A stretch of DNA of 29,926 bases from a virus, in IMG/VR virus record IMGVR_UViG_3300045988_112872. One strand, given 5' to 3'. The first letter of the stretch is position 1, and every line of letters starts with the position of its first letter. The notes under the pieces are model-generated. The model saw only the letters and a list, made by a program, of their open reading frames with translations. It did no database searches and had not been told where the DNA came from. The translations under genes were made by a program, and so were the position numbers. Positions 2,527 to 29,483 of this stretch are shown here, piece by piece.

Positions 2527-3096
2527 TTAAGCGTATTTTCAAATGTATCCTTTAGATGTTTGCTTTAATCCACTACATACTCTACTAATGGCTCCTCTAT
2601 CAGTTCCTACTGCATTAGCCGCTTCAGTACAGCTTTCATATTCCTTAATAAAGTTTCCCTCTAAATCATATTGTAAAACCTTTTTACATCTTTTCTTATT
2701 ATGAATTTCATTACTAATCTTCCAAGGCAAACTATATAAATGTTTCTTACCTTTATTTGATTCTGATAGTTTCTTTCTTCATTCTGGAGAAAATTTTATT
2801 CCATAGTTGCCACCTTCACCTCCTGGCTTCAAGTTTAAACACATTGGATCTACTTCCCATTTATCTCCTATTAATTCATACTCCCTTTTAGATAATTCAT
2901 CTGAATCATTACAGAATGCAATTATTTCTTTTTTATATGCATTAGGAAATCTTTTATAGTAGTTCTTAATAATTTTACCAGAACCTTTATATGGATCTTT
3001 ATATGGGTCTTTTCCTTTATAAATACGCTTACCAATGTAATATTTTCCTCTCAATGAGCCAGCAGTTAAATAAATTTTATAACAATAGTAAAACAT
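2527..3096 (-). CDS. GIY-YIG homing endonuclease (GIY-YIG, NUMOD3-like linker, C-terminal HTH)
   Basis: Joins track ORFs 2779-3096 and 2539-2730 (same frame) through TGA at 2779-2781 (FSPE-W-RKKLSESNKGKK). Reads through TGA at 2539-2541 (SKGYI-W-KYA) to TAA at 2527-2529. N-terminal YKIY...GKYYIGK is a GIY-YIG motif. Confidence 0.8.
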
Positions 3097-3098
3097 AA

Positions 3099-3551
3099 TT
3101 ATATAATTGTAAATTTCTGTCTTCTCTGCAAACCCTCTTTATTCTTCAGTCCTAAATGAATTCAACTAGCTATTCCATTTCTAGGTTTCTCATAAATAAG
3201 TTGATCAAAATCATACTTTTCAATAGCTTCAGTAATCCAAACCTGAAATTCTTTCATTTGGCCGTTACTTGGAATTATATCTGCTGCATACCCTGTTAAA
3301 TGAGCAGAAGTTGAAGATCCTCCTACAGCTTTATTAAGCTCATTACATCTATAACCTGAATTCACACTTATTGCTGGATTCCCCAACCGATTAACATCAC
3401 AATACTCTGCCCAATCACTTCTTAATGGGTCTAAAAGTTTCTCGACTAACTCTATAAGGTGTTCAGTAATCTCTTTATTTGGAGTATTATCTATCTTCTT
3501 AATAGAAGCTGTATCAGATCTTGTTAATTCACTAATAGTAAAATATTTCAT
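3099..3551 (-). CDS. endolysin, peptidase M15 (VanY / L-Ala-D-Glu peptidase type)
   Basis: SGYRCNELNKAVGGSSTSAHLTGYAADI is the M15 H-x6-D zinc motif. The track ORF stops at TGA 3162-3164. Read as Trp it continues ...NGIAS-W-IHLGLKNKEG... to TAA at 3099-3101, restoring the conserved W-x-H segment that holds the third zinc ligand. Confidence 0.8.
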
Positions 3552-3712
3552 TATTTAATAATATCTTTAAGCATAGTATAACGGTAAAATAAATGACATC
3601 CTGCACCAAGTGCTATGAGTACTAATGTAATCCAAAATGGAATTACTTTTACCATTAAAAATACTAAGATTATAATTACTATTGCTATTAAATATTTCAT
3701 CCAATATTTCAT
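3551..3712 (-). CDS. putative holin (53 aa, two hydrophobic helices)
   Basis: MKYWMKYLIAIVIIILVFLMVKVIPFWITLVLIALGAGCHLFYRYTMLKDIIK. Its TAA overlaps the endolysin ATG (TAATG). Missed by the track because it is under 60 aa. Confidence 0.5.
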   Translation of the reverse strand: MKYWMKYLIAIVIIILVFLMVKVIPFWITLVLIALGAGCHLFYRYTMLKDIIK

Positions 3713-3715
3713 AAC

Positions 3716-4369
3716 TTATTTATTTAAAATTATACTTACTTTAATTCCTGCATCTCTTAGTTTTACTCAAGTATCAACTGGCATCTCATTATCACAATAA
3801 GATAAGCCTAAAATTCCAATATCTCTATCTTCTGATTTTAAATAGAATATTGCAATCTTATTAACATCATTAGATTTAAATGTATAATACATTCTTCTAT
3901 CTAATTCCTTTATATCTTCAACATCTCCAAATCATCCTCCTTTTTTAGATGTTTCCAATATAAATAAATAATCAGATAATAGGAAGTCTTTATAGTGACT
4001 TGAAACTGGAGCAACTCCAGGTTCTGTTTCTTCACTATTCATAATTCCATAAGTGAATGGTAATCCTCCTAATCCTGAAGCGCCATTATGATACTCAATA
4101 ACTCAAGCTCTATCTGCATTCGTATCATTTAAAAGGTCTTTAAGGATATATCTAACCTTAAGATCCGCTTCTTGTCGTATTACTTGATTAGTATTATGAA
4201 CTGTTTCTATATAACTTACAACTTTATCATATATTATTCCTGGATTAGTACTTATAATTATTACATAAGAAATAAATATAAATCCAAATCCACTTTTAAT
4301 TATTTTCCACAGTCCATATTTATCTACTCATTCTAATACCTTTCCAAACCAGTTTAATTTATTTTCCAT
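3716..4369 (-). CDS. membrane-anchored protein of the lysis region (217 aa), function unknown
   Basis: ATG at 4369 overlaps the upstream TAA. There are four in-frame TGAs (VLE-W-VDKYG, ADRA-W-VIEYHNG, KKGG-W-FGDVED, PVDT-W-VKLRD) and TAA at 3716-3718. It has an N-terminal hydrophobic helix. This gene is invisible in the standard-code track. Confidence 0.6.
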
Positions 4370-4794
4370 TACATATTATCAGAACAAGTACCCAGAGTAT
4401 TGTCTACAGCTAAATCAACTCTAACAAATACTCCAGTGCAAATATCTTTGAACTTCTGATAAAATGGAGTAAAAATTAAAGGATAAGAAATATCAACTTC
4501 TGGATATTGGTTATTAAATCGGTTAATTATATTAGTTAATGCTAATATTCCAGCTGATTGCTCTTCAAGCTGATTATTATCAGTCTCATCCCATCTTGCT
4601 ATAAAATAGAGATTTAAAGAGTAAGTAATAGTATCCTCATCCATATTAAATGTATTTGGAGTTATATAAAATACATTATATTCAATAGTTGGGATACTAT
4701 TAAGTTCATATATATCCTTACTTCCTACAAAATTAATATTGGGTTCTTCAAGAGCACAAGCTTTTAAATTGTTTATTAATTCAAAATACGTCAT
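4369..4794 (-). CDS. hypothetical virion/neck protein (141 aa)
   Basis: Track ORF 4369-4896 trimmed to the Met at 4794 (MTYFELINNLK...), one nt after the upstream TAA. The upstream part of the track ORF overlaps the preceding gene. Confidence 0.5.
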   Translation of the reverse strand: MTYFELINNLKACALEEPNINFVGSKDIYELNSIPTIEYNVFYITPNTFNMDEDTITYSLNLYFIARWDETDNNQLEEQSAGILALTNIINRFNNQYPEVDISYPLIFTPFYQKFKDICTGVFVRVDLAVDNTLGTCSDNM

Positions 4795-4795: not shown

Positions 4796-5473
4796 TTACT
4801 TACTCTTTTTATTGTTATCACTTGAAGGGAAATCATAAGCTCTTTGCAGAGGACCTTCACAAGAATTATATCTCCAACCTTTACCTCTAGCTCCACCTAA
4901 CCAAATAGTACAAGATGAACTTGAATACATATTTGGATACATATCTTTAAGAGGTTTATAAGAATACAATTCAGGAAAATCATTATAATATGTAATTACC
5001 CAATTTTGTAATCTCGTTTTAAAGAAATCTGCTTTATCTCTATAATATTTCTTAATAAGATTAACTTGGCTAATATCAGAAGTTAAATCTTTCTCATCAT
5101 CAGTCCTCATAACCCCAAAATTACTCAGCTTAAATGAGATGGGTATAGTAATCTCACTTAATACTTGATAAAGTAAATAAGGCTGAATATAGTAATCTAG
5201 CAATTCTTTATATCTATGATTTTCTGGGTCATCTATTGAAGTAGGATCATAAATAGGAGGTTCTATTGGATGAACTGGTTTATTTGGATCTTTTCAATCA
5301 ATTACTAATTTCTGAATCTTTTCTAAGAGCTTAGTTCCAATTAATGACTGAAGCTCAATATCTTGTGCAAGTTTAATTGCTGACTGAAGATATTTACCAG
5401 AAACATTATTGTCTAGATTAGATTCTGATTTTATATAATCTTCAGATATTAATAGTACATTTCTATATTCCAT
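4796..5473 (-). CDS. putative head-tail connector / head completion protein (225 aa)
   Basis: ATG at 5473 (MEYRNVLLISEDYIKSESNLDNNVSGKYLQSAIKLAQDIELQSLIGTKLL...). TGA at 5294-5296 (LVID-W-KDPNKP) joins it to track ORF 4796-5203. The function guess rests on the N-terminal motif and on position next to the portal. Confidence 0.4.
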
Positions 5474-6116
5474 AATAATATTTATAATTTTTGCAGGGTT
5501 TATTTTTTCTACAAGATCTAGATATACTAGAAGAATCTACATTATTCTTCTCTCCAGCTTCCTTAGCTGATTTATACTCACAAATAAAATTACCATCTAA
5601 ATCATACTTATATACTTTTTTGCACTGACGTTCTGAAATTAGTTGTTTTTCTTTATCTGAGAGTTTCATACCTTTATTTCAAGGAGTTTTGCCTAATCTT
5701 GCCTCCCTCATTTTACGCTTGCTTTCATCTGAATGCTGTTTACCATAAAATGAGTTATTTTCTCCTGATCTTATAATTCTAAGACTATCTTTATAATCTT
5801 GTGAAAAAGAATATCCACAAGTACCGTCTCCTCCATCAGTTAAATTATACCCATATTTTGGATTTCTAGTATTATACTTATAAATCAGAATCTTTTCTAA
5901 AGTCTTAGCACAAGCTTCTGGAAGATTATCTCTAATTATAATATGCTCAAAATTATCTCAACCATATTTTTTAATTGCTCTGCTAAAATAAAGATTATTC
6001 TTGTAACCTTGACCTTTAGTTCCCCATCTATTATTTAAAGTAAGTGATGTTATTCCAAAATATAATTTATTATCAGCTATATTCTTATGGCAGTACACTG
6101 TATAATTATTCAACAT
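5463..6116 (-). CDS. GIY-YIG homing endonuclease (217 aa)
   Basis: ATG at 6116: MLNNYTVYCHKNIADNKLYFGITS...NNRWG...AIKKYG-W-DNFEHIII (TGA 5958-5960) ...LGKTP-W-NKG (TGA 5679-5681) ... C-terminal HTH (track ORF 5463-5669). TAG stop. It overlaps the portal end by 11 nt and the connector start by 11 nt. Confidence 0.85.
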
Positions 6117-7197
6117 TTTCTGCATTGTCTGACATTCCTTTTGGAGTTAAACTAAATGGTTCAATAGTAATACTATTCTTAATGCCGAAGATTTTATCAA
6201 ATGAGTCACAAATTTCTGATTGTATTGGGCGTACAAAAGTACGATTATATAGCTTAAATGCTTCATTAAACTCATTTTCATTAAATCCTGAGCTATAGTT
6301 TAAACCGAACAACGAAGGATTAGCTCTGAAGGCACAGAATATTTGATCTCTGGTTCTCTCAGATAATGATTGATATTTCTCATCAAAATCATCAGAATCT
6401 AATCTTTCAATAGTAGTCTTATTTGCCTCATCTGCATTATATGAAATCAATATTCTGCCAGCATTCTGATAACCAGAGAACTTCTCATTAATATTCCTCT
6501 CAATCTCCTCTCTAATTTCATCTGTAGGTTCCCCATTATTAAAGTTAATAATAAGATTACCCATAAATCCATTATTGATGTTATTTAAATGGAATTCATT
6601 AATATTTTTCTCAGTTTCACAAGATAAAATGGCAGCTCCATAAACAGGAATAGGATATACTCCTCTTGTTATATAACCTTTATTATAAAATATACTAGCT
6701 GGATTTTCATCAGCAGCTCCAAATTTTGGATATTTTATAGCTTTTGCAGACCAAGCTGTCCAATCAGTTGCATAATATAATATATCATTCTTTTCGCTTG
6801 ACCTTACATTCATAAAATCAATATGATAGATCTCTGCAACTCTTCCAAGCATATCTCTAATTACTTGGATAGCATAACCTCCAAATATCATCTTATCAAT
6901 AGTGATTTTTCTCATTATATCAACTATTGTTTCACCTTTCTTGTTTACAACTACTTCAAATCCTGGAGCATTACATTTAACATCATTACCAACAATAAAG
7001 TCAGCAGAACCATTAATAATGGATTGGAGAGTGGCAACATTTAAATATAAATCCCATAGATATAATGGATATTTATTATCTTCTCCTCACATTACATAAT
7101 CTTTTCCTCTCACTTTAGTTTCTGTAGGTAATACGATATTACTTGCAATAAACGGATCAATAGCACTTAACTGAACTTTTGTTTTATTTTCGCTCAT
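6106..7197 (-). CDS. portal protein (363 aa)
   Basis: ATG at 7197 (MSENKTKVQLSAIDPF...GKDYVM-W-GEDNKYPLYLWDLY...), TGA at 7087-7089, continuing into track ORF 6106-6915. The pattern is portal-like (GEDNKYP, NNGFMG, FRANPSLFG). Confidence 0.7.
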
Positions 7198-7576
7198 AAC
7201 TTACGTATGTATTAGGTTTGTCGTATTGATAATTATTATTCTCATAATCTCCAATTCTTATTAATCCTGTTCCCAATATAGGTATTGGTTTACCAGCAAC
7301 TAATATCTGAGTACCATTAGTAAGAGTATTATTATATGTAACCATAATAACTGGATTGCCATATAACTCTGATCTAAATGGATTGTTTACATCAACTATA
7401 ACTTGAAATTTATTTGGATTAGTAAATAAAATATATTGATATTCACCGTCTCTCATTCCTTCTTGAAGTGTAATATCAAACTTATAGTAGATATTCTCAG
7501 AATAATTCTGATTTTCAAGATCAAATGTATAAACTTCTTTAGTAGTTGTATTTTGCATTAATAAAGTATAATTCAT
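7184..7576 (-). CDS. hypothetical protein (130 aa)
   Basis: Intact ORF with a TAA stop. It overlaps the portal start by 14 nt and is the first gene after the 7652-7679 terminator. Confidence 0.5.
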   Translation of the reverse strand: MNYTLLMQNTTTKEVYTFDLENQNYSENIYYKFDITLQEGMRDGEYQYILFTNPNKFQVIVDVNNPFRSELYGNPVIMVTYNNTLTNGTQILVAGKPIPILGTGLIRIGDYENNNYQYDKPNTYVSYERK

Positions 7577-7651
7577 ATTTTACAGCAATTTACATTAGTT
7601 TTACATATCTTTTTCTTAAAATATAAACCAATTTACTAATGTATTAAAATA

Positions 7652-7679
7652 ATTAAAGGAGACCTAAGCCTCCTTTAAT
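7652..7679 (-). terminator. intrinsic terminator (leftward), abutting element E2
   Basis: The 10-nt arms 7652-7661 and 7670-7679 pair, with core aaaggag/ctccttt. The leftward strand has a U-rich tail after the hairpin (aauuauuuua). Confidence 0.6.
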
Positions 7680-7728
7680 GTCAAGTTTTTTACTCACTCA
7701 AAGTACTAAGAAAAAATAAAAACTGACA
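7679..7728 (+). repeat. conserved intergenic element E, copy 2
   Basis: tgtcaagttttttactcactcaaagtactaagaaaaaataaaaactgaca. It begins at the last nt of the terminator hairpin and ends 5 nt from the TAA (7733-7735) of the LRR fibre gene. Confidence 0.75.
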
Positions 7729-7732
7729 AAAA

Positions 7733-8701
7733 TTATGCTGATGCTAAAGTTCAGTTTTTAGATGCAGCTAATGATTTCTGTTCCTCAGTAAGTGCATTAT
7801 AAACGTTAGTATAAAAAGTTAAAGTTTTGGTATCCTTTCCAGTTAAATCACTAACATTTGTAATAATATCAGTTACTGATTGACTATTTAGTGCGCTAAA
7901 ATTTGCTAAATTCATACTTTTATCAGCTCCTTCAACACCCCCAAAATAAGTAACAATAGTATTAGTAAATGCACATATTGAAGCTTTATTTAGATCTCCT
8001 ATTAATGTGCAATTATTTAATTTAATTTTTCCTACTGTTGTAACACCCTCATTATATGAACTAAAGTAATTATATAAAGATAGTTGTCCATTAATAACTT
8101 CAATTTCAGGAACATTACTGCTAACAGAATAAAAGAAAAAATGTAAAGATGATACACCAGTATCAACTTCATTTATCACTTTTAAAGTAGTTGGTAAATT
8201 AGAAGCATTAAAGAATGTTCTTGTTGCATAATTTCAACCAGAGGATAAGGTATTAATTAATTCTAAATTATTTAGTGTGCCTTGAAATCCAGAAAATGTA
8301 TCCGAATCCCCAACACTAATTCTTATATTATCAATATATATATTATATGTGTTTTGGAAGGTATATGATGCGTTATATACTTTAGACAGATCAATATGAC
8401 TTGATATATCTATTGTAGATATGAAATTAGTCCCATCAAATCAATAATGTATATTATCTGGAAGAGAATATTCTATATTATTATATTGCTCTTGTGTCAT
8501 ACTAGAATGTGCAAATGTTAATCCATAATCATTTAAATTAATCTTTCCTCCACCACCTCCAGAAATCTGTCCTATCTTATCTGCATAGCTTCTAAAGGTA
8601 TCGGAATCTGATACAGCAACACCTTTAGCTACAATAGCATCTTTAATGGCACTCTTAGTACCTTCAAGATACGTTAATTTATCAGAAATTGTATTTGCCA
8701 T
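7733..8701 (-). CDS. tail fibre / receptor-binding protein with BspA-type leucine-rich repeats (LRR-A, 322 aa)
   Basis: Joins track ORFs 8441-8701 and 7751-8179 through TGAs at 8441-8443 and 8234-8236. Reads through TGA 7751-7753 (AASKN-W-TLASA) to TAA at 7733. The N-terminus ISDKLTYLEGTKSAIKDAIVAKG is fibre-like. The C-terminus is paralogous to 10117-10959 and 12380-13333. Confidence 0.65.
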
Positions 8702-8702
8702 A

Positions 8703-9224
8703 TTAGATATATTTAAATTTTACCCCTTTATAAGTGTCTGTTCTTCCTTTAAGACAATCTATAACTCTACTATGAGTATACCCATCTATTGATGTTTCAA
8801 TTGCATTTTTATATGTTTTAACTAGTAAATCATTAATAAATAGCCCTACAGGTTTACTAATTTTATCAATACATCTATTTATTCTAGTTCCATATGTATT
8901 ATTATACTTTGCATCACATCATTCTAAATTTTCTACCCTATTATCTGTCTTATTTTCATTTATATGGTTAACATATGGTAGATTGTCAGGATTTGGAATA
9001 AATGCTTCTGCTACTAGTCTGTGAACTTTAATAGCTTTAGGTTTATCTAAGCCAGATACTAGAATTACATAATTATAGCCATATTTATCTATATGCTGTT
9101 TTAGCTTTTTATGTATTTGTTTTCTGGTTCTTCCAATAGAATCTTTAAAAGTCAATGGGTTACTATATACATCTCCTGTAGAAGATACACTATAGTTAGG
9201 ATAATTTGTTAATACTCTATTCAT
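8703..9224 (-). CDS. HNH homing endonuclease (NUMOD4-like N-terminus, HNH, C-terminal HTH; 173 aa)
   Basis: Start at Met 9224 ([21 protein letters not shown]...[13 protein letters not shown]...[27 protein letters not shown] 8919-8921), continuing to TAA at 8703-8705. It overlaps the fibre gene end by 8 nt. Confidence 0.8.
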
Positions 9225-9876
9225 TTGGAATTTCACCATTAATTGTATCAAGAGTAGTTGAAATATTACCAATCTGAGCTTGAATTGCTGAGATTTCTCC
9301 ATCTAACTCTGTCATCTTTGTATTATATGCATCTGTAGTTACATAGTTTGATAACTCACTTTTATCTGCTTTAAGTGCAACTTCATCTTTAGTAGCTAAT
9401 CCAGATACATCAGGAATCTTATTCTCTACAGCTGTAAGCTCTTCTTTAGTAGCAAAATCACTAGTATCAGGAATTTCTGCTTTAGTTGCATAATTACTTA
9501 AATCTACAGATAGTTGCAAACCTTCTCCATTTCTATGTAAAGATAGAGGCTGATTAGCTTGGAATACTTCCATCTTAGAAGTTTCTAACTCCTCAACTTC
9601 TCCTTTAAGATTAGTAATCTCAGTATTAATTGGAACAAGTTTAGCATCTATAGATTGATCTACTAAAGGTGGAACTTGATCTTCAATACTTTCTGTTACT
9701 TTAGTATCAATTAACTCTTCTGCTTTCTCTTCAGAAATGTAATTACCTTTAGGTTGGAATCTTTCATCTGCTTCAATCTTAGTATAAGAACCAACAGGAA
9801 GTTGTCCAGATTCAATACCACATTTCTTACTTACATAGAAAGTTTGTGTATTTTTAGTATTCTTAAGTATAATCAT
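9217..9876 (-). CDS. tail fibre protein, coiled-coil with repeated xATKxE motifs (219 aa)
   Basis: Intact ORF with a TAG stop. It carries repeats such as [38 protein letters not shown], similar to motifs in 10961-12157. Confidence 0.55.
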
Positions 9877-9878
9877 AA

Positions 9879-10115
9879 TTATCTAACTTTTATTGATTCC
9901 TCATACTCTTTAGAAACTTTAATAGCTAATTCTTTATATTCAGCATCCTTATCTAAAGAGACTTCTGATAGATGCTCTAAATCGCAACTTAAAGGACAGA
10001 TACATTCAGTAAATGAACTGTATAATTTAATATCCATTCCTTCTTTATAGTTAGTAAGTATATAACCTTCTTCTGGACTAACTACTTTATATTTTTCTTT
10101 AATTTCAATTTTCAT
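9879..10115 (-). CDS. small protein, paralog of 12159-12380 (possible fibre chaperone/adaptor)
   Basis: 78 aa. It shares EGYILTNYKEGMDIKLYS...CPL with EGYFITSYKEGDDIKEYS...CPL in the other copy. Both copies sit directly upstream of a fibre gene. Confidence 0.5.
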   Translation of the reverse strand: MKIEIKEKYKVVSPEEGYILTNYKEGMDIKLYSSFTECICPLSCDLEHLSEVSLDKDAEYKELAIKVSKEYEESIKVR

Positions 10116-10116
10116 A

Positions 10117-10959
10117 CTAATATGTTACTGACCAGCCTTTACTGGTGATTTGTGATTTTTGCTCTTCTGTTAATGAGTTATATACAGTTTGATGAAATTT
10201 GATTATTAAATTTCTATCTGTAGTATATAATCCATCTATAACATTATCTACTGACTGACTCGTTAATACTGGTAATTTTGATAAATTTAATATTTCTATT
10301 TTAGTGCTTTTCCCTATATTAGTAAACCCTCCTAAATCTGTCAAATAAGAAAAAGGCCCAGAAGCAAATATATTACTATAATCCTGTCACTTTTCTGCAT
10401 TGTATTGTGGCACTGATTCTAAAGATATACAACCTCTAAACATATTGTCTACGGATATTGCATTACTCATATTTATATTTGGTGCATTTTTTAAAGCACT
10501 ACAACCACTAAACATATAATAATATGCAACAGCTATTTGATTATTAATATCTGGCACAGAAACTAAAGAGGAGCAGTTTTGAAACATTTGACTAAATTGA
10601 GTAAATCTAGATAATATATTGGGAACAATTTTTAAGTTACTACACCCATAAAATAATCCATTACCACTATTAATGTTTGCATTTGAAAAATAGGTCATAT
10701 CGGATACATCCTCAATAGAAGTGCTTTCGAATATACTATCATTACCTTTATACCAACTATTTACTGTACTTGCATCACAATCAGTAATTTCATCTTGTCC
10801 AGGAAACAGATTATCTATAACTAACTGTTTAAACTCCAAACTTTTAAATACTATTGGAGTGCAAATATTACTAGGCCAGACTTTGGTACTGCCAACATAA
10901 ATAGCAGTACCTTGTCTGTTACCTACATAAAATGTTTTTAAATCATCTCTAATATTCAT
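10117..10959 (-). CDS. BspA-type LRR protein (LRR-B, 280 aa)
   Basis: Joins track ORFs 10387-10959 and 10117-10344 through TGA 10387-10389 (QYNAEK-W-QDYSNIF). It has LRR units of the form F..C..L...P. The C-terminus is ...SLTEEQKSQITSKGWSVTY. TAG stop. Confidence 0.65.
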
Positions 10960-10960
10960 A

Positions 10961-12157
10961 TTATTCTACAATTAAATATTGTGTATTAGGATCTTTAGTT
11001 GATAAACCATCATACTCTGATTGAGTTAGAACAGTAATAGTATTTATTTGAGGTTGGGTTCCAGTTCCAGCTTCAATATAGTTTCCAGCAGGCTGAATAC
11101 CTAAATCTGATAAACTCTTATTGCCAGATAACTCAACAGAATTAATCTGAGGTTTATTTGTTAACTGAGTATAGTCAGTAGTCCCTCCACCTCCAGATAT
11201 TTCGAGATTACCTTCTCCTAAAATACTTTCACCATTAATAGTCTTTATATTAGTCCCAGAGACTAATTGCTCTTGATAACTATGATAACTAGTATCTGCT
11301 GATACTCCAGTTGGAGTAATAGTAGTTTGAACCAAAGTATGATTAGCTGTAGTACTTTCAAAATGGAAAGTAGCTTGAATATTTTCTCCTGAAACAAAAC
11401 ATACTTCTGGAGCTGCTATATCACCATAACCTAGAATATTTACATAATAAAGCTCAAATGGTGTTTTATTAGCTATAGCATTCTTAACAGCAGCGAAATC
11501 TCCAGAAAGATGAGTAGTGGAATTTATAAATAGAAATGGAATATTAGAACCACTTTCAATTTCTATATTACCTTCTCCAAGTAAAGACTGACTATTGATT
11601 GTTTTGATATTAGTTCCACTTACAAGTAAATCTTGCTTAGTAGCCATCTCTTTATCAAGTGAATCAATCTTATTTCCATCTTCTTCTTGCTTTGTTTTAA
11701 TAATTGATATGTCTGAAGTATTAGTTGCTACTTGAGTAGATAAAGATTCTACCACAGAAGAATCAGCTTTATTGGCAACTGCATCTGAAATTTCAGTTGT
11801 AACCTCTTCTTTAGTTGGATAATCAGCTAATCGTTCAGTTATCTGATTATCAATATTTTCAGCACTTGGAATAGTACTCTTTATTTGCTCTAACTCAGAA
11901 TTAATAGTAACAATATCTTCAGATGACGCTAATCCCAACTCTTCTGAAGTCATATTACCATTTAACTCAATACTATTGATCTCAGGTTTATCCTGAAGAT
12001 CAAAATAGCTATTAGTAGCTAACTGAGAACCATCCATAACCTTAACTTCATCATCCTTGTCAATAACAATAACTTTAGTCACATTTGACTTATCTATTGT
12101 TTCGACTTCAAGGACATTAAGATAAGGAAGAATTGTCTTTTCAGTTTCGTTTGCCAT
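10961..12157 (-). CDS. tail fibre protein with internal repeats (398 aa)
   Basis: Intact ORF. It has the duplicated segment LVSGTNIKTIN(S/G)(Q/E)S(L/I)LGEGN(I/L)EI and the duplicated (D/N)KP(E/Q)INS(I/V)ELxGN. It also has a GGGG linker. Confidence 0.6.
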   Translation of the reverse strand: MANETEKTILPYLNVLEVETIDKSNVTKVIVIDKDDEVKVMDGSQLATNSYFDLQDKPEINSIELNGNMTSEELGLASSEDIVTINSELEQIKSTIPSAENIDNQITERLADYPTKEEVTTEISDAVANKADSSVVESLSTQVATNTSDISIIKTKQEEDGNKIDSLDKEMATKQDLLVSGTNIKTINSQSLLGEGNIEIESGSNIPFLFINSTTHLSGDFAAVKNAIANKTPFELYYVNILGYGDIAAPEVCFVSGENIQATFHFESTTANHTLVQTTITPTGVSADTSYHSYQEQLVSGTNIKTINGESILGEGNLEISGGGGTTDYTQLTNKPQINSVELSGNKSLSDLGIQPAGNYIEAGTGTQPQINTITVLTQSEYDGLSTKDPNTQYLIVE

Positions 12158-12158
12158 A

Positions 12159-12380
12159 TTATTTATTTTTATAAGATTCCTCTTGTTCTTTTAAATATCT
12201 TTCATTTGTTTCTGCATCAATAACCCTATAAATAGATATATCAAAGGTTAAAGGGCAATATAAAATAGTTGATGCACTATACTCTTTAATATCATCACCT
12301 TCTTTATATGAGGTAATAAAATATCCTTCATCAGAGTATAACTTTATAAATATGCTAGTTTCAATATGTAAATGTTCCAT
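12159..12380 (-). CDS. small protein, paralog of 9879-10115
   Basis: 73 aa. See 9879-10115. Its ATG overlaps the upstream TAA. Confidence 0.5.
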   Translation of the reverse strand: MEHLHIETSIFIKLYSDEGYFITSYKEGDDIKEYSASTILYCPLTFDISIYRVIDAETNERYLKEQEESYKNK

Positions 12381-18633: not shown

Positions 18634-18635
18634 AT

Positions 18636-21600: not shown

Positions 21601-22085
21601 ATTTCAGTATCAGCAGGTAAAACATTACCTTCCTCATCTGTAATAAAGTATTGTAAATCAGCAAGAGTTCTTAATGATCCATCTTCTTTATATTTAAGCC
21701 CATAGAAGAAATCTCCTAAGCCTCCATATAAAGTAATGTTATATGTAATGACCTTCTGTTTAATTTGTATGGTATTTAATTGCATATAACCAGATTCTAT
21801 TAAATCTCCATTATCATAGATTCCAAAATCAACTCGTTTTGAAGGATTGAAATTAATACCGCTAAACTGACCGTCTTCAATATGTTGTAATCTATCTAAT
21901 TTATAGATTTCTCCAAATATCTTATTATTATTTTTGGTACCAGGTATAGAAATCGTCTTACTAAACGAGTTCTTGACTATAGTGGGGTTTTGGAAATCCT
22001 CAACTGTATAAGTTATAGGAAGACTAATTCCCTCACTACAGTCAACCTCTTTATTTGCAATAAATAATTTAATATTCTTTCTCAT
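18636..22085 (-). CDS. large tail/baseplate protein (1149 aa) with a BACON-like or Ig-like C-terminal region
   Basis: Joins track ORFs 21096-22085, 20142-20954 and 18636-20135 (all one frame) through TGAs at 21096-21098, 21054-21056 and 20142-20144. The gaps were translated by hand and contain no TAA or TAG. Confidence 0.6.
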
Positions 22086-22086
22086 T

Positions 22087-24291
22087 TTATTTTCTATATT
22101 TATCTTGAGAACTTTGCACTTCTATAGTATAATAAAACATATTTTTACCCTGATTACTATACGTCTTATACTCACAACTATTATTAGTAATTATTACAGG
22201 AATAATCTTATTATCTTCCAGGTTATGTAAATATACCATAGTAGATTCTAATAGATGGTGCATCTTTGATGCTTGAGTATCTGTAAGATAATTAGTATAT
22301 AAAGTCCATTCTGGAACTATAGTGTTTAAATACTTATTTTTACTAAACTGAGAAGTGGTATTTAATACCTTTCTTACATAAGTCTGAGATTCAATTTGAT
22401 CCGTTTGTTTAACATTACCTTGTACTAATAAACTATCCCATCCTCCATAAGCATTAGTATAATATAATACATAATTCTTATTAGTAGTATCAATCTGATA
22501 ATTAATAGTTGTAGTAAAAGAGCCAGATTCAACAAATCCTATTTCATATTTACTCTTGCATTCCAAAAGTAAATTACCTAAAGGTTCTGCATAAGTATAA
22601 CCATTAATTCCTTGTCTTAATGTAATATCTACAGTAGTTGCTACTCCTTCAGGTGTAGTATAACGTCTATTAAGCACACCTTCACCAGTTGGGAATATCC
22701 AACTACATAATACATACTGTCTTGAATCAACTAAAGTGTCAATAGGATCACTTAAGAAATAAGGCTTAGTTAAATCTGTATCTTTATAAGACCAATCATT
22801 AAAGAATGTTACAGGCTTTTCACTACCGCTTGAAGTTATTAATGTAAAGGTTTTTAAATAGTTAGGTATAATTTCTGTCTTTCCAAAAGATGGAAATATA
22901 ATGCCGTTATCTAAAAAGTCTTCAGATACATCATTAAGTAAAAATTGTACTCCTGTAGTATCAGGATATTTATAAGCTTTACCAGCATAAATAGTATCTC
23001 CTGCATAATCAAGATGATATTCTATAAAATCATTTAAAGTTTCCTCTTCTCATATATAATCTTTCCATATTGGAGATATATCTACTTTAACCTCTTGTAC
23101 AATATTAAATGAAGTATTTATAACACTAGAACCATTTTTTACTACTGTAACTCCAACTGTTGCTTTTCTTGAAGCATTACCTGTATTTTCTGTAGCATCA
23201 AAATTAATACTTACAATATTCATACCTCCTGGAGTTCCTCTTTCTATTACTAACTCCATTTTACTTAACCAAGTCTGAGCATCTGCTGGAATTGCAAATA
23301 CTACATCATCTAAATTATCAGAACCTGTACCGTCTATCTTATATCTTCCTGCTGTATATCCAATACTAACACTGGACTTTAAAGATAAAGAAGTAGCTAA
23401 CTTAGTAATTGGAACTGTAGCATTTAATGTATATCCACCAGAGGTTATTGCAGTAACTAATGCAGCATAGTTTTTAATACTAGTTGTAGCATTATCAGGA
23501 AAAGTAATAACAAAGTATTTATTAACTTTATCAACCATAATATTTGAAGATCCTGGACAAGTTACAGATAATTCTGTTATCTCTTCCTCAGTACTTGTTA
23601 GAGTGCACATAAATCTATCAGTAACACCTGGGCCAGCTCCATAAGTTCCAGATGATGGATTAACTATTAACTTCAAATCTTCTGGAACTCCACTCTTTTC
23701 AATAGTAAAGCCATAACTATAAGAAATAAACTTATTAGTATCATAATAAGCTCCTAATTGAATAGTTCCAGTAAGATTAGTATTCCATTGAGTATTAGCA
23801 TTTACTGTAATCTTAAACTTAATAGAGCAGGAATCCCATTCTAATACCTCAACACTTACTAAAGCAGTAGCATTTACTACATCACAAGTTCATTTAATAA
23901 TATCTGCTCTACCTAATATATATTCAACAGTATAAGTACCTCCAGTATTGGGTACTGTTATACTGCTATTTGCAGGATAATATCCAGGAGCTTGACTATG
24001 AAGATAAACTGGCATAGTATCTTCTAATTGAGCAGTAGTCAGTCCTTTTGGGTATAATCTAAATATTGTAGAAGAGTCTGTTGTAATAGTTGAGGGATTT
24101 GTAAAGTTAATAGTACAACCACTTGTACTTGCATTAGAAATAGTAACATCTAATGGACCCTCTTCTGAATAGTCATCTCCTCATAGCCAATAATCATATA
24201 CTCCTGTAAGACCTCATCCTGGATTTTCCCATTTAACAGGATATGTTCCTGTACTTCTTGGTATTCCTAATTTACTTGGTATAAATGTCAT
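22087..24291 (-). CDS. virion protein with BACON-like domain (734 aa)
   Basis: ATG at 24291. TGAs at 24214-24216, 24181-24183, 23890-23892 and 23050-23052 join an untracked N-terminal 205 aa to track ORFs 23050-23676 and 22087-22677. The segment ADAQTWLSKMELVIERGTPGGMNIVSINFDATENTGNASRKATVGVTVV...FNIVQE looks like a BACON domain. Confidence 0.6.
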
Positions 24292-24293
24292 TT

Positions 24294-24773
24294 TTAAAAG
24301 TCTTTAAATACATTATTAACTTGCGTTTCTAAATCTTTTGTAATTGCATCATCTAACAATGCAACAGCCGAAAGCTCATCTAAAGATTCTTCTAATATAC
24401 GCTTTCCTTGTGTTCCTTGTAAATGAATCTTTCTTGCAACTAAGTATGCAAGTTGATCTGTAGATGGAAGTTTACCTCCATAAGGTCTTGGTAATACAGG
24501 TTTAGTTCTTATCCAATTCTTTATTTCCCTAATAGGTGGAAATTTACCTGGAGATCTACCTTCTTCCAAATACTTTCAGTAATCTTGAATTTGTAAGCTG
24601 ACTTCATAAGTTCCATCTTGATCCTCAACAATGTAGTTTAAAGTATTACCTAATGTACCTGTATCATCAGCATTATTCTGTAATAACTTCTGTCTATATA
24701 TTGAAATCAATTGACTTCCATATTGTCTTAGTACTCCTTCAAGATTAGGGAATTTTAAATCTTGACTTGTCAT
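24294..24773 (-). CDS. neck / tail-completion protein, HK97 gp10-like (159 aa)
   Basis: Joins track ORFs 24576-24773 and 24294-24569 through TGA 24576-24578 (LQIQDY-W-KYLEEGRSPGKFPP). It has a DTGTLGNTL motif followed by W.YlEeG, as in the gp10 family. Confidence 0.4.
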
Positions 24774-24820
24774 TTTTTATAAAATATATTGTTCTGAATA
24801 TTAGTAGCTATACAAAAAAG

Positions 24821-24843
24821 CAAGGGAGATTTTTACTCCCTTG
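24821..24843 (-). terminator. intrinsic terminator (leftward) ending the early/packaging module
   Basis: caagggag (24821-24828), loop, ctcccttg (24836-24843). On the leftward strand it is followed by cuuuuuug. It overlaps element E4 by 2 nt. Confidence 0.7.
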
Positions 24844-24891
24844 TAACTTTTTTATATTATCTTAGTACCAAATATGAGTAAAAAGGTTACA
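24842..24891 (-). repeat. conserved intergenic element E, copy 4 (inverted orientation)
   Basis: The reverse complement reads tgtaacctttttactcatatttggtactaagataatataaaaaagttaca. It has the same core ACTCA-N6-GTACTAAGA. The arms have changed together to TGTAAC/GTTACA. Confidence 0.75.
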
Positions 24892-24892
24892 G

Positions 24893-24988
24893 TTAGTGTC
24901 TCCTCTTTCACTCTTCTATTTGTCTTTTTTCTTCATTTCCTTTATCTATTAGATAACATATAATATTAAGAAACTCTTGAATATACAT
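24893..24988 (-). CDS. possible mini-ORF (31 aa) in the largest non-coding gap
   Basis: ATG at 24988: MYIQEFLNIICYLIDKGNEEKRQIEE-W-KRRH with one TGA. TAA at 24893-24895, one nt from E4. It is very short and may be non-coding. Confidence 0.2.
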
Positions 24989-25035
24989 ATCATAGACTTG
25001 ATGCCAATTTAATCTTGTAACTTCACTAACTCTGT

Positions 25036-25695
25036 CTATTCAACAAACCCAGTTCCATTTTGCACCAAACTCACTGTTTTCCGAGACTGAACGATCATCT
25101 TCCTTAATTGATACTTCTTCACTGGATCTTTCTCCTTCTTCAGCATCTTCTTCATCTCCCTTATTGAAGAGATTAGGGTACTGACCGTTAATGCGGCTAA
25201 TAGATTGCAAAAAAAAACCATAATGTCATTTATGACAGTAATTGGAATTTTATCATATAACTTATCTGCCAGTTCAATTAAATCATAGCCTTCATTATAT
25301 TTCTTACCTTTTGGAATTAAGAAGCATAAAAAGATATATTTAAAATTCTTTTGATAGTCTTTATAAAAGTTCTGAAAATCTATATATTGAGCAGCAGTCA
25401 TCTGCCTAATATTTAATTGTACAGTATATTTATCTCCAGCAATAGTATATTCAGTTTCTGGAGCCTTAGCTTTGTATTTATTGATTATAAATTGAACTTT
25501 ATTAAGTTCTACAGCTAGTTCATCTAACCCCATACTCAAAAGAGTATCTCTTGTTTTATCTGGATCATCTGAAAGTAATGCACATATCTCAATACTTCTA
25601 TCTAAATCAGTCATCTTTGCATTACTGTTTATAAACTCCATTAGAGCTTCATATTGTTTAAGACTTACGTCTTCCCATTTAGTTGCTATATTCAT
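25036..25695 (-). CDS. hypothetical protein (219 aa)
   Basis: Intact ORF whose ATG overlaps the TerL stop. TAG stop. I recognise no motif. Confidence 0.5.
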   Translation of the reverse strand: MNIATKWEDVSLKQYEALMEFINSNAKMTDLDRSIEICALLSDDPDKTRDTLLSMGLDELAVELNKVQFIINKYKAKAPETEYTIAGDKYTVQLNIRQMTAAQYIDFQNFYKDYQKNFKYIFLCFLIPKGKKYNEGYDLIELADKLYDKIPITVINDIMVFFCNLLAALTVSTLISSIREMKKMLKKEKDPVKKYQLRKMIVQSRKTVSLVQNGTGFVE

Positions 25696-26942
25696 TATTT
25701 AATTGCAATATTATAAGTTCCTTTATTTGTATTTAAAGCATCATAAGCTAACATTAAAGATATACAAGTATCATCATTAAATCCAGATGGAGCATTATAT
25801 GATACATTTCCAGTCTTTGGATTATAACTGGCTTCATATAGTCTTAATTCATTTAATAGTTTATCATCCTTTAAAATACCAATCTTTTCATTTTCTAATG
25901 CAGCTTGTAGCTTATTTACAATAGCTGCCTTAGACTTATTAGTAGTTAAAAACTTAACTATCCGTAATTTAGGATTCCTTTTTACAAGAATATCATAAAA
26001 CACTGAACCTATTGAGTTTTGTTCGACTTGAACTATCTTTATAAATCCCTGATACTCAGTAAATATATTTGTCAGTAAATCAACTTGTTCTGTTGGAGTT
26101 TTGTCGTTAAAATACTTTATAAAGACCATCTGCCCATTTTCATTTAAAGCTGTAATACAAGTATAGTCTTTACCAGAACCAGTAGCCCAGTCAACTCCAA
26201 TATAAAGATTATGATATTCAGGTTTTTTATCAATTATGCAGTTAGATATATTATTAAAGAGACAACCATCATCATCTGCAAACTCCCCAAGATATTCAGT
26301 TCTAAATTTATTTTTAGAGGTTGTAAGGCGATACATTTCAAGTTTATCCTCACTCAATAGCATAGAGGTATCTTCTAATGCTCAATCAAAGGATTGATAA
26401 TATTTGCTAAAATTGCCATCAAAGCCTTTTTTAAAGCATTCATAAAAGAATCCTTCTCTAAACCTTGGAGTACTAATTATAAGTATCGGAGCATTCCATA
26501 CATCAGTGGTAGGCTTAATAATTTCAAATACTTCATCTTTAAGATAAGCTGCCTCATCAAGTACTAATAATCCACTAACGGAGAATCCTCGTAATGAATC
26601 CATTTGTTCTCCAGATCTAAATAGTATAGAACTGCCATTATTAAACTCTAATTCTAATAAGGTTTCATTCTTTCTTCTTAATATATCAGAGTCTATAACA
26701 GCTTGTACAAGTTCTTTAAATACCTTTCTAGATTGTCCAAGAGTTGGTTCAACTATACAATTAACACTCCCAGGATAATTTATAGCGAATCTCAATAATT
26801 CATTTTCTGCCAAGAACGATTTACCTACCTGTCTCTTTGCTTTAATTGTAAAGATTTTACCAGACCTATATGAGTCATTCATAGCAGTATGTACCTTTAA
26901 TTGATAGATAAATGGGCTATATCCTTTATATATTTTTGTCAT
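25695..26942 (-). CDS. terL: terminase large subunit
   Basis: Joins track ORFs 26382-26978 and 25695-26363 through TGA 26382-26384 (YYQSFD-W-ALEDTS). Walker A KRQVGKS, Walker B LLVLDEA, coupling motif STP, nuclease domain IGVDWATGSGKDY...FNDD. The start is taken at Met 26942. The alternative Met at 26978 would give a longer overlap with the upstream gene. Confidence 0.85.
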
Positions 26943-27378
26943 TGTTAATTGGATCTCCAAATTTAAACTGGACTTCATTATTCTGAATAGCTACAATAGT
27001 CTCAGGTTGATTTAATCCAAACATACTATTTATAGTCTTAATAATCTCATTTGCAGCTCTAATATCTCCCTTACTAATAGCAGTATCCAGTAATGATTCC
27101 AATCTTGATAATTGTATATGTCTAAGATTTTTTATAAGGTTATCATTCTTTTCAGCAATTATCTTATAAGCTTCTCCAATATATCTTGCAGCCGTTGATT
27201 GGCTTACATTATATTTACTTTGAAGTTCTTCACTTACTTTATTTCTGGACCACCCTTTATTAAATAATCTTGCTGCATAAAGATATTTAGTTTTTTGTTC
27301 GTCTATTTGATCCTCTTTTACTTCTTCCTTTTTCGGTCTCCCTATTTTCTTCGGCAGTTCCTGATTCTTTACTTTCAT
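26926..27378 (-). CDS. DNA-binding HTH protein, probable terminase small subunit (150 aa)
   Basis: It lies immediately upstream of terL and overlaps it. It has a basic N-terminus (GRPKKEE) and an HTH-like segment WSRNKVSEELQSKYNVSQSTAARYIGEAY. Confidence 0.4.
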   Translation of the reverse strand: MKVKNQELPKKIGRPKKEEVKEDQIDEQKTKYLYAARLFNKGWSRNKVSEELQSKYNVSQSTAARYIGEAYKIIAEKNDNLIKNLRHIQLSRLESLLDTAISKGDIRAANEIIKTINSMFGLNQPETIVAIQNNEVQFKFGDPINNDKNI

Positions 27379-27622: not shown

Positions 27623-27711
27623 AATTAGCACTTTTTAGTATAAGTAAATATAGAAATTAACTTTCCATTCTTGTAGTGATAAATAACTTCTGTTTCCATA
27701 AAATATAATTT

Positions 27712-28041
27712 TTAATCAATAAGTTTGTATATAACATCTATCAGCTTAGTAGATGCATCTTTTAATAATATCATAATATCTTTAATAATTGGAGTCATAA
27801 ATGCTAATAGTGCAATATACCCAACCATTAAAATTGAAAATTGACTTGTAATAAGAATATATATTAATCCAATTCACCAAGTCATACATAAACTGCAATC
27901 TAAAGGTTTTAGTCTTCAATCTTCTTTATAAGGTATACCTTTAAATAGTCTTTTTCAAATACTGTGTTTAAAACTATCCAAAGCCCCAGATAAATCAATT
28001 ATAAAGACTATTATTACTGCTATTATAAATAATTCTAACAT
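27712..28041 (-). CDS. small membrane protein (109 aa, about 3 TM helices, CxxC motif)
   Basis: ATG at 28041. It has three TGAs (KHSI-W-KRLF, YKED-W-RLKPLDCSLC, MTW-W-IGLIY, the last adjacent to a TGG Trp). TAA at 27712-27714. It is absent from the standard-code track. Confidence 0.6.
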
Positions 28042-28280
28042 AATCTCTCTCTTATTTGTTTAATAAATCTTTGAATTGTAGTATGACTAATTCCTAATAT
28101 TCTTCCCACTTCTCTATAACTGTGATATTCAGCATATAATATGATTACTGTCTTATCTGCCTTATTAAGCTCAAGTCATTTTGGATATATACTTAATAGT
28201 CTATCATCCATATTTGTAAACATACTATAGTCTATTTCATACTCAGTAAGTAAATCGTCAATATTAATCTTCCGTTTCAT
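28035..28280 (-). CDS. sigma-70 family region-4 protein (HTH half of a split sigma factor; 81 aa)
   Basis: ATG at 28280: ...SIYPK-W-LELNKADKTVIILYAEYHSYREVGRILGISHTTIQRFIKQIRERLC. TAG at 28035-28037. It has the region 4.2-type HTH pattern and is absent from the track. Confidence 0.6.
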
Positions 28281-28572
28281 TTAATCAATCCTCCAATTCG
28301 TCATTTTGTTGTTCAAGTGGTTCTTTAACAATCTCATAATATTTCTTATAGGTATAGTAATATCTACTTGTTTTACTAAACCAATAATTCTTAAATAATC
28401 TTGTAATCCAAAATTTCAATTCATTTTTGCTATCAAGCTGATTTAATTTTGGATTTGAATACTCTAGTATTTCTACAAAAATCATTTGAACACAGTCATC
28501 ATCTGCACCAAATTTTTGCTTAAGTTCCATAATAAATGGATAGTACTTTTCTACAATTTCGTTATTACTCAT
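28264..28572 (-). CDS. sigma-70 family region-2-like protein (N-terminal half of a split sigma factor; 102 aa)
   Basis: Track ORF 28285-28572 read through TGA 28285-28287 to TAA at 28264-28266. DDCVQMIFVEILEY and FWITRLFKNYWFSKTSR resemble ECF-type regions 2.1-2.4. Confidence 0.45.
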
Positions 28573-29059
28573 ATGTTCACATATATCCTCCTGCTGTTTT
28601 TCGCTGCCCTTTAAGAACCTTTACAATATTTCTAGATTGTATATTTAGTTCTCTCTCAGCATCTATTGCTGAATCCCATCTTTTAATAACTATTCCATTT
28701 AGTAATTGCAGTATTGGTTTCTTATGACTATATCCAGCTCGCAGATTATGAGTTCCATAATTATTATTATAATTATAAGTACACCATTCTAAATTAATTA
28801 CATTATTATTTGATTTATTTTCATCCTTATGATTTATACAAGGATAGTTATTCGGATTAGATATAAAAGTTTCAGCTACTAATCTATGTATATAACACTT
28901 CTTTTTCAAATTTTTATTATATAATGTTACTGTAAAGTACCCATTAGTTTTTACTTGAGGTTTTAACCTCTTTGGAACTGATGCTCTTAAACTTCATATT
29001 GAGCCATCAGTTCCAATTTGGTAGTTTTCAAAATTAAGTATTCTTTTATAGGCTATCAT
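28565..29059 (-). CDS. HNH homing endonuclease (NUMOD4-like N-terminus, HNH, C-terminal HTH; 164 aa)
   Basis: ATG at 29059: MIAYKRILNFENYQIGTDGSI-W-SLRAS (TGA 28994-28996) ...NGYFTVTLYNKN...IHRLVAETFISNP...INHKDENKSNN. It reads through TGA 28577-28579 (AGGYM-W-TYE) to TAA at 28565-28567. Confidence 0.8.
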
Positions 29060-29483
29060 TTGCTATATAATTACTAAATTCTGTATTTACATCTATCTTA
29101 ATGGCTTTCTTTAAAGACAACTCTGTTTTTAATGAATAGCCATAAGTTCCTCCAAAATCTGTTGTAGAACAACCATATTTCATAGAATCCTTTATAAAGG
29201 CTTGTTTTATATCTTTAAATATATATACTCCATCATCAAATATTATTACTAATATAGAATTATTTCTTGATAGCATATCAAATTTATCCCTATTAATAAT
29301 AGTGGTTGGATATTTATTAGAATTGAATCTTCTTCTTTTAACTTCAATTATATAATCAATTCCATTCCAATTAAATGTTCCATCATACCTGGAATAATCG
29401 TCTTTACATCATTCTATATCTATATTAAATTTCTCTTTAAATAGATTCTTTGTAAAGACTAAACTTCTTATATCTGTTTTCAT
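29046..29483 (-). CDS. PD-(D/E)xK-like nuclease (145 aa)
   Basis: ATG at 29483 overlaps the upstream TAA. TGA at 29409-29411 (NIDIE-W-CKDDYSRYDG) joins it to track ORF 29046-29276. D...IDYIIEVKRR resembles the D-x(n)-E-x-K motif. Confidence 0.4.

Follow-up and report, generated by a model that had tools for sequence, protein, structure and literature searches.

The window analyzed here, the 29,926-nt IMG/VR record IMGVR_UViG_3300045988_112872 taken as a whole stretch of DNA, is a phage genome in which UGA is, with near certainty, a sense codon read as tryptophan (translation table 4), with genes ending only at UAA or UAG. Taken as a whole, the explanation that we consider highly probable is that of a table-4 phage of a Bacteroidota host, with the tRNA that reads UGA coming from outside the phage genome. 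The phage, which is tailed and uncultured, is one more of the stop-codon-recoded gut phages, a class already described, and the phenomenon itself is known: TGA-to-Trp recoding in gut phages has been established bioinformatically (Borges preprint, bioRxiv 10.1101/2021.08.26.457843; PMC11210395), and proteomic proof exists only for TAG-to-Gln recoding (PMC9523058). Positions 1–99 of the window are repeated at 29828–29926 with 100% identity and a spacing of 29,827. Because this terminal repeat is exact and the end joins the start in related contigs, the window constitutes a closed, circular 29,827-bp phage genome, and the 99-nt repeat is an assembly overlap. The G+C content is 29.7%, and the main gene set comprises 36 genes, namely 35 on the minus strand plus g00 on the plus strand, or 39 genes when three small plus-strand open reading frames (ORFs) are included.

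When only TAA and TAG were taken as stops, 35 contiguous head-to-tail ORFs filled positions 2527–29722 of the minus strand. With this setting, the 38 in-frame TGAs in 21 genes counted in the initial annotation were reproduced exactly, and the TGAs that it had placed at 5958, 5679, 28994, 28577, 2539, 3162, 26382, and 7751 were all located as claimed. Over 9,421 codons, frame 0 contained 38 TGA, 0 TAA, and 0 TAG, in agreement with the claim that no other stop codon lies in frame; the other two frames contained 687 and 966 TAA and TAG codons. TGA never terminated a gene (0 of 39), as had been proposed. The number of genes is about 39, not the approximately 45 that had been given. Similarly, the figure of five genes ending in TAG was correct for the 36 main genes, whereas that of about 40 ending in TAA was too high (31); with the three plus-strand ORFs, the totals are 33 TAA and 6 TAG.

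The standard code (table 11) breaks this gene structure in the way first described. The gene of the large terminase, TerL (g27; 25695–26978, minus strand; Pfam Terminase_6N and 6C), with its TGA at 26382, is split into 25695–26363 and 26382–26978, and that of the major capsid protein (MCP; g19; 13990–14895, minus strand; PHROG 11320 and 1623), with its TGA at 14704, into 13990–14640 and a fragment ending at 14895. Three minus-strand genes vanish: the membrane protein gene g04 (3716–4369; TGAs at 4328, 4103, 3932, and 3767), the small membrane protein gene g30 (27712–28041; TGAs at 27955, 27916, and 27874), and g31 (28035–28280; TGA at 28176), which encodes a helix-turn-helix/sigma-70 region-4-like protein. 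The comparison of gene calls that had been suggested as a check gave a coding density of 95.4% and a median gene length of 189 aa under table 4, versus at most 82.0% and 129 aa under table 11. The recoded stop is present in the genes for TerL, the portal, MCP, tail proteins, the M15 endolysin, and homing endonucleases; Pfam domains span or flank the in-frame TGAs, and the reading frame is kept on both sides. The MCP peptide spanning the TGA reads TDAALNLLSTDVQFGDGLTCG-W-DEAGTQTLSQR (also given as TDAALNLLSTDVQFGDGLTCGWDEAGTQTLSQR), and that of TerL reads YYQSFD-W-ALEDTSMLLSEDK (also given as YYQSFDWALEDTSMLLSEDK). Public gene calls on contigs of the window's lineage already use table 4, with products that include proteins of 1149 aa and 771 aa.

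The internal control offered by three paralogous leucine-rich repeat (LRR) proteins on the minus strand also held: their C-termini read NKN-W(TGG)-ILA in g17 (LRR-like; 12380–13333; TGA at 12941), SKG-W(TGG)-SVTY in g14 (BspA-type LRR; 10117–10959; TGA at 10387), and SKN-W(TGA)-TLASA in g10 (LRR-like tail or receptor-binding paralogue; 7733–8701; TGAs at 8441, 8234, and 7751). The statement that recoding extends across the phage was correct for 21 of the 36 main genes, distributed over all modules, but not for g00 (287–2008), which has no TGA and five TGG codons. At least two further conserved in-frame TGAs were found beyond those listed earlier, at 2090–2092 on the plus strand (in orfA) and at 24908–24910 on the minus strand.

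The identity of the inserted amino acid was examined in about 100 related contigs, consisting of 35 TerL-centred IMG/VR loci, 8 TerL-bearing ENA or Logan contigs, and 58 MCP-centred loci. Four independent lines of comparison supported the assignment of TGA to Trp. At the alignment columns where the window has TGA, a first set of relatives had TGA 452 times, TGG 171 times, and other codons (TAC, TAT, and TTG) about 5 times, and a second set had TGA 169 times and TGG 128 times, followed by Phe, Tyr, and other codons, including 4 for Gly. Opposite the relatives' own in-frame TGAs, the window residues were W in 1008 cases, Y in 94, F in 18, and G in 4. Standard-code relatives, which have no in-frame TGA, showed F 57, W 43, Y 5, and G 1 at the window's TGA columns, with W in 8 of 8 at residue 56 of g30 and in 7 of 10 at residue 66 of g25, a structural-module protein with no assigned function (24294–24773, minus strand; TGA at 24576). 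MCP codon 14704 is TGA in the window genome only; 49 relatives have TGG at this position and 8 have TTC. The TGA column of the portal gene g08 (position 7087; gene 6106–7197, minus strand; Pfam Phage_portal) is TGG in 26 relatives, TGA in 7, and TAY in 7. At residue 199 of TerL, W persists in homologues as low as 56% identity and gives way to F at greater distance. Among conserved Trp columns outside g00, 51 of 75 were polymorphic for TGA and TGG among the relatives.

The endolysin gene g02 (Peptidase_M15_3; 3099–3551, minus strand; Pfam E = 5.8e−15) provides a functional illustration. Its product aligns to the D-Ala-D-Ala carboxypeptidase 1LBU, and the third zinc ligand, His132 (...ASW-I-H-LG), lies two residues past the TGA at 3162, which is kept in 12 relatives; termination at this TGA would therefore leave the enzyme without its third zinc ligand and inactive. 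The base at position +4 after TGA has the same distribution as that after TGG, without a readthrough signature. TGA accounts for 34% of Trp codons, whereas the other codon pairs ending in A or G are 67–97% A-ending; TGA is tolerated, not preferred.

No decoder of UGA was detected in the phage. Searches of the window for tRNAs by ARAGORN (default and relaxed settings) and Rfam (E ≤ 5) returned none, and a custom search of the window for a cloverleaf with a UCA anticodon returned only weak matches inside genes. Two low-threshold ARAGORN candidates for “tRNA-SeC(tca)”, at 26948–27020 and 28957–29029, were rejected; they lie inside coding sequence, have no T-loop features, and were not found by Rfam. 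Among the relatives, ARAGORN detected no tRNA in any of the IMG/VR loci, 35 centred on TerL and 58 on MCP, or in the 8 further TerL-bearing contigs. Likewise, the proteins scanned against Pfam and PHROGs included no release factor, tRNA synthetase, or other translation-related domain. Sup-TCA tRNAs are carried by only 35% of table-4 phages according to one survey (Borges preprint, bioRxiv 10.1101/2021.08.26.457843) and by only 15% according to another (Cook et al. 2024, PMC11210395). Since 65–85% of the described table-4 phages thus have no suppressor tRNA, its absence here is typical of such phages, neither unique to this one nor class-defining.

The signals for host expression in the window were of the Bacteroidota type. 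A GGAG or GAGG core was present upstream of only 2 of the 36 genes, leaving 34 without a Shine-Dalgarno sequence, and position −3 was A in 28 of the 36. The combination of a rare Shine-Dalgarno core and A at −3 is typical of Bacteroidota, unlike Firmicutes. The motif TTTG-N20-TAnnTTTG, which is the Bacteroidota −33/−7 promoter form (PMC12632263), occurs at four unique places when the terminal duplicate is excluded, against about two expected genome-wide, and all four stand before first genes in the right orientation: a tandem pair at 22–53 and 112–143 (plus strand) upstream of g00, one at 1991–2022 (plus strand) immediately upstream of orfA, and one at 29767–29798 (minus strand) upstream of g35. 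The endolysin gene g02 adjoins the holin-like g03 (3551–3712, minus strand; 53 aa with two transmembrane segments, no TGA). An endolysin with a holin implies a peptidoglycan wall and therefore argues against a host from the wall-less Mollicutes.

Related sequences gave further indications of the host. Homologues of g00 with 44–47% identity occur in standard-code contigs as parts of Bacteroidota-type integrative elements, where their neighbours are Arm-DNA-bind_5/Phage_int_SAM_5 integrases and genes of the BACON, OmpA-like, dipeptidyl peptidase IV (DPP-IV), and bile-salt-hydrolase (CBAH) types. An integrase of the Arm-DNA-bind_5/Phage_int_SAM_5 type is also encoded in the recoded relative L035 (TerL identity 47%), together with a GH108 lysin containing 6 TGAs. 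Standard-code relatives with 39% TerL identity lie in 189-kb and 587-kb contigs of Bacteroides metagenome-assembled genomes (MAGs). We regard a Bacteroidota bacterium that has a peptidoglycan wall as the most likely host and lean towards one that uses the standard code. The phyla with known code-4 members are Bacillota, Pseudomonadota, Verrucomicrobiota, and, most recently, Actinomycetota; Bacteroidota is not among them (GTDB authors' preprint). A 148.6-kb IMG/VR contig (IMGVR_UViG_3300045988_175865, comprising loci L014, L150, and L189) was considered as a host contig and rejected, since the 38 kb that were read were all recoded and phage-like. This contig is about five times the genome length, has an unrelated fibre-like region upstream of its g15 homologue, and may be a concatemer or a chimeric assembly.

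The use of TGA is uneven along the genome. The only large plus-strand gene, g00, contained 1 TGA versus 120 TGG across 26 relatives, against a TGA fraction of about 0.4 in the rest of the genome. None of its three well-aligned Trp columns was polymorphic for TGA and TGG, while its Lys, Glu, and Gln columns varied as elsewhere. Judged by this codon comparison, g00 appears to avoid TGA systematically. The holin-like g03 had 0 TGA versus 53 TGG in the relatives. The AlphaFold2 model of the g00 product (predicted local distance difference test score, 84.9) comprises a superfamily 2 (SF2) helicase core and an extra C-terminal domain, and its Foldseek matches were DEAD-box helicases and UL9, the origin-binding protein of herpes simplex virus 1; no PHROG match and no PDB sequence match were found for g00. 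The modelled fold suggests that g00 is probably a replication initiator. It was also considered as a code-switch factor and rejected, because its SF2 helicase fold is generic and has no tie to translation. The integrases of the Garnet and Topaz phages are known to avoid recoded stops (Borges preprint, bioRxiv 10.1101/2021.08.26.457843), and the avoidance of TGA in g00 parallels this.

Other early genes do contain the recoded codon. The 41-aa orfA (2027–2152, plus strand; in-frame TGA at 2090–2092) has its TGA in all 27 relatives, and both halves of the protein are conserved down to 64% identity. In g34 to g30, right behind the g35 promoter, 8 of the 14 Trp codons are TGA. Given orfA and these TGA-rich genes, a picture in which early genes are standard and late genes recoded fails, and UGA would apparently have to be decoded as soon as infection begins.

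We propose that the phage belongs to the alternatively coded gut phages of Borges et al., that g00 would be kept free of TGA much as their integrases are, and that the UGA-reading tRNA would be encoded not by the phage but by the host or some other element in the cell; alternatively, a phage factor of an undescribed type would enable UGA to be read. Because the TGA-rich g34 to g30 lie directly behind a host-type promoter, the decoder would have to be present early. Several points weigh against this reading. Neither a CRISPR match nor an integrated copy links the phage directly to a host, and the MAGs into which relatives with 44–49% TerL identity have been binned include both Bacteroidia and Clostridia. 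The TGA avoidance of g00 rests on 3 to 5 Trp columns in related, non-independent genomes, and orfA, which lies in the same operon as g00, has an invariant TGA. Moreover, TGA is found in the first genes past a host-type promoter with no early-to-late gradient, a pattern more easily explained if the cell already decodes UGA than if the phage induces a switch.

A switch driven by the phage or a helper is one form that UGA decoding in a standard-code host could take: one of the approximately 20 unannotated phage proteins would disable release factor 2 (RF2) or alter tRNA-Trp(CCA), or a helper phage or prophage would supply a UGA suppressor tRNA. We judge it unlikely but well worth keeping in view. 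The Bacteroidota-type host signals, the lack of a tRNA in so widespread a lineage, and the retention of standard coding in g00 would all be expected from it; 65–85% of table-4 phages carry no suppressor tRNA (Borges preprint; PMC11210395), and the reading of UGA as Trp without a UCA tRNA has a precedent in Blastocrithidia. However, no candidate protein emerged, since Pfam and PHROGs show nothing related to translation and g00 has the look of an ordinary SF2 helicase or origin-binding protein; with the TGA-rich genes transcribed from the outset, hardly anything could be translated before the switch; and the +4 context lacks the bias of a leaky stop. In its boldest form, a 39-gene phage with no tRNA would make a standard-code Bacteroidota cell read UGA as Trp from the first minutes of infection by an undescribed mechanism, which we find doubtful. 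The means may be a small protein that neutralises RF2 or alters decoding by tRNA-Trp(CCA), or an obligate dependence on the UGA suppressor tRNA of another resident phage.

It is also rather unlikely that the host itself uses code 4, without RF2 and with a tRNA-Trp(UCA), so that the phage would use the code of its host and need no machinery of its own. This would agree with the lack of a tRNA in the complete genome and in every relative, with the presence of TGA in 21 of 36 genes, in every module and already in those that come first after a host-type promoter, and with the fact that TGA is never a stop and is followed by the same +4 base as TGG, as for a plain sense codon. Most table-4 phages in GenBank infect Mycoplasma or Spiroplasma (PMC11210395), and walled code-4 gut bacteria of 31–40% GC have recently been reported in Eggerthellaceae (GTDB authors' preprint). 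On the other hand, the endolysin and holin argue against the wall-less Mollicutes, and the promoter motifs and missing Shine-Dalgarno sequences resemble those of Bacteroidota, in which no code-4 lineage has been reported. The modest 34% share of TGA among Trp codons, set against the A-ending preference of the other codon pairs, and the avoidance of TGA in g00 also speak against a code-4 host. Furthermore, relatives of the same group are standard-coded, or TAG-recoded inside standard-code chromosomes, and the published Garnet prophages sit in Prevotella (Borges preprint). The remaining probability falls to a suppressor from the host cell or to some other cause.

Two further alternatives concern the meaning of the codon itself, and both are vanishingly improbable. 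Phages using code 25, in which TGA is glycine, as in the phages of Absconditabacteria and Gracilibacteria, do occur in gut and oral data (Borges preprint, bioRxiv 10.1101/2021.08.26.457843), but the alignments refute this assignment: the relatives' in-frame TGAs stand opposite G only 4 times versus W 1008 times, Gly codons make up 4 of about 950 at the window's TGA columns, and standard-code relatives have G once there versus W 43 and F 57 times. The idea that the TGAs are real stops, in pseudogenes or through assembly errors, or are read as selenocysteine or by occasional programmed readthrough, has nothing in its favour beyond the fragmentation under the standard code, and it is excluded by the recurrence of the same TGA positions in dozens of independently assembled contigs from IMG/VR, ENA, and Logan, by the continuation of frame and protein similarity across every TGA, by the interchange of the 38 sites with TGG, by the unbiased +4 context, and by the absence of any SECIS-type (selenocysteine insertion sequence) element in the Rfam search.

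In comparison with known systems, the window resembles the code-4 members of the alternatively coded gut phages in having TGA as Trp in structural and lysis genes, a low GC content, close standard-code relatives that have lost TGA stops, and one gene that would have to function under the standard code and avoids the recoded stop, and it resembles most table-4 phages in having no detectable suppressor tRNA. It differs from the alternatively coded gut phages in that the 29.8-kb genome is closed and free of tRNAs by three methods, as are about 100 related loci by ARAGORN; in that it is recoded from the very first genes and not in a late block only; and in that its TGA-free gene is a helicase-like replication gene and not an integrase. 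Garnet phages are small recoded phages of 34 ± 5 kb, with Prevotella prophages of about 24 kb (bioRxiv 10.1101/2021.08.26.457843). The window shares their size class and the Bacteroidota-type host signals, as judged from their published description, and, as in Garnet, the structural and lysis genes form a single recoded unit and some relatives (L035 and L124) are temperate with an integrase. However, the Garnet examples described are TAG-recoded and have an integrase, with a suppressor tRNA in the representative genome, whereas the window is TGA-recoded and has neither. As in some clades of the Borges study, the relatives of the window mix codes 11, 15, and 4. With the phages of Mycoplasma and Spiroplasma, which owe table 4 to their hosts, the window shares TGA as Trp, an AT-rich genome, and no need for a phage tRNA, but unlike them it has a peptidoglycan peptidase with a holin, Bacteroidota-type promoters, and TGA as only a third of its Trp codons. 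The code-25 phages of Absconditabacteria and Gracilibacteria likewise have in-frame TGA in most genes, and their hosts decode TGA so that a suppressor tRNA is not required; however, TGA is Gly in them and Trp in the window.

The window's lineage is widespread. A 415-aa TerL variant (P0008), which is 100% identical to the window TerL over 97% of its length, was found in 123 sequence-collection blocks. Samples in which the phage occurs include ERZ28644505, ERZ27258701, ERR4571452, and SRR33022505. Among GenBank phages, megablast with 13000–27000 and tblastn with MCP gave no match, and tblastn with TerL matched only Thermus and haloarchaeal phages at ≤28% identity. A search of genome contigs with the TerL sequence alone gave no match, and a profile search of genome contigs recovered only distant standard-code relatives at ≤49% identity. 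The relatives differ in how they use TGA. In L047 (59% GC), TGA is the stop codon of 4 of 11 genes, and in L045 (31% GC) TGA never occurs in frame and ends just one of 12 genes. L166 (IMGVR_UViG_3300029905_000019; 30.1 kb, 28% GC) has no in-frame TGA versus 32 TGG and no TGA stop in 17 genes, so far as these counts indicate leaving TGA apparently unassigned; it is the closest standard-code relative found, with an MCP 66% identical to that of the window and 18 shared genes. In the window's clade, L165, and L035, TGA is Trp. It has been proposed that a stop codon is lost at low GC and then captured as a sense codon (Borges et al., bioRxiv 10.1101/2021.08.26.457843), and this phage group displays the whole of that route, from TGA as a stop, through TGA hardly or not used, to TGA as Trp.

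Another relative, L124 (ENA ERZ28598220, a 132-kb contig, 5652–21740), is a TAG-recoded (table 15) prophage located beside a tRNA-Thr(CGU) gene. Its chromosome genes use TGA stops, and its in-frame TAGs number 13 in TerL and 3 in the portal, with none in the integrase or in the g00 homologue. No suppressor tRNA was found in the portion of this contig that was fetched.

These findings have practical consequences, as table 11 splits or loses the terminase, capsid, portal, tail, and lysis genes, and pipelines for annotation, host range, and taxonomy need table 4 for such genomes. The phage adds a complete, very compact, and widespread lineage to the TGA-recoded gut phages and sharpens the question of how table-4 phages without tRNAs are translated. 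Its closed genome, the robust absence of a tRNA, the early TGAs, and a host phylum with no known code-4 member make the lineage a good test case, the outcome of which would be either an undiscovered host that uses code 4 or carries a suppressor, or a new kind of code-change mechanism. If the host is a standard-code Bacteroidota bacterium, the compact genome would be a good system for studying such a mechanism; were the switch driven by the phage, the small genome and many natural variants could allow the responsible factor to be found among a handful of genes.

The remaining genes were assigned as follows. On the plus strand, orfA is followed by orfB (2205–2345) and orfC (2347–2490). A hairpin, GGAGGG-CATAAA-CCCTCC, lies at about 2500–2520, where the plus- and minus-strand operons meet, and looks like a bidirectional terminator. 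The minus-strand operon begins with g35 (29483–29722), followed as its second gene by g34 (29046–29483; TGA at 29409, kept as TGA in 28 relatives), and also includes g32 (28264–28572; no assigned function; TGA at 28285). The large tail genes on this strand encode a tape-measure-like protein (g22; 16318–18633; TGAs at 17998, 17899, and 17719) and tail proteins of 1149 aa (g23; 18636–22085; TGAs at 21096, 21054, and 20142) and 734 aa (g24; 22087–24291; TGAs at 24214, 24181, 23890, and 23050). A DUF6712 protein is encoded by g06 (4796–5473, minus strand; TGA at 5294), and a prohead protease was also recognised among the window proteins.

The TGA at 24908–24910 belongs to a minus-strand ORF (24893–25210) that lies in the −1 frame relative to g26 (25036–25695) and has the C-terminus ...EEW(TGA)KRRH*. 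This ORF overlaps the final 175 nt of g26, extends 140 nt into the supposed intergenic gap, and is absent from public gene calls. It shows codon-like conservation in 20 relatives, with the TGA invariant. It may extend g26 through a programmed −1 frameshift, or it may be a small gene in its own right that starts from an internal ATG (MYIQEF...). A hidden RNA gene in the 262-nt “intergenic” stretch 24774–25035 was considered and rejected, because the stretch consists of partly coding sequence, a repeat element, and a hairpin. The repeat is about 55 nt long, with quasi-palindromic ends (TGTCAA...TTGACA) and an internal hairpin, and occurs at 203–260, 7675–7732, and 16198–16255, with a diverged copy at about 24840–24890; the copies always lie between gene blocks, and the one near 24.8 kb is followed by a GGGAG...CTCCC hairpin and a T-run. 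The repeat might serve as a late promoter, operator, or processing site, and a connection with the sigma-region-4-like g31 is possible.

Four genes of the homing-endonuclease type are present in this 30-kb genome, all on the minus strand: the NUMOD1 homing-endonuclease-like g01 (2527–3096; TGAs at 2779 and 2539), the GIY-YIG/NUMOD3 homing endonuclease gene g07 (5463–6125; TGAs at 5958 and 5679), and the HNH endonuclease genes g11 (8703–9302; TGA at 8919) and g33 (28565–29059; TGAs at 28994 and 28577). Their presence and position differ among close relatives, with extra or missing copies in L036–L043, and they appear to be actively mobile.

The LRR-type paralogues g10, g14, and g17 share a common C-terminal tail, LTEEQK...SK-x-W, and their genes are interleaved with small paired ORFs (g13 and g16) and with genes for coiled-coil fibre proteins (g12 and g15). 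This block, which is conserved less than any other region among the relatives, has the appearance of a cassette in which receptor-binding modules are exchanged.

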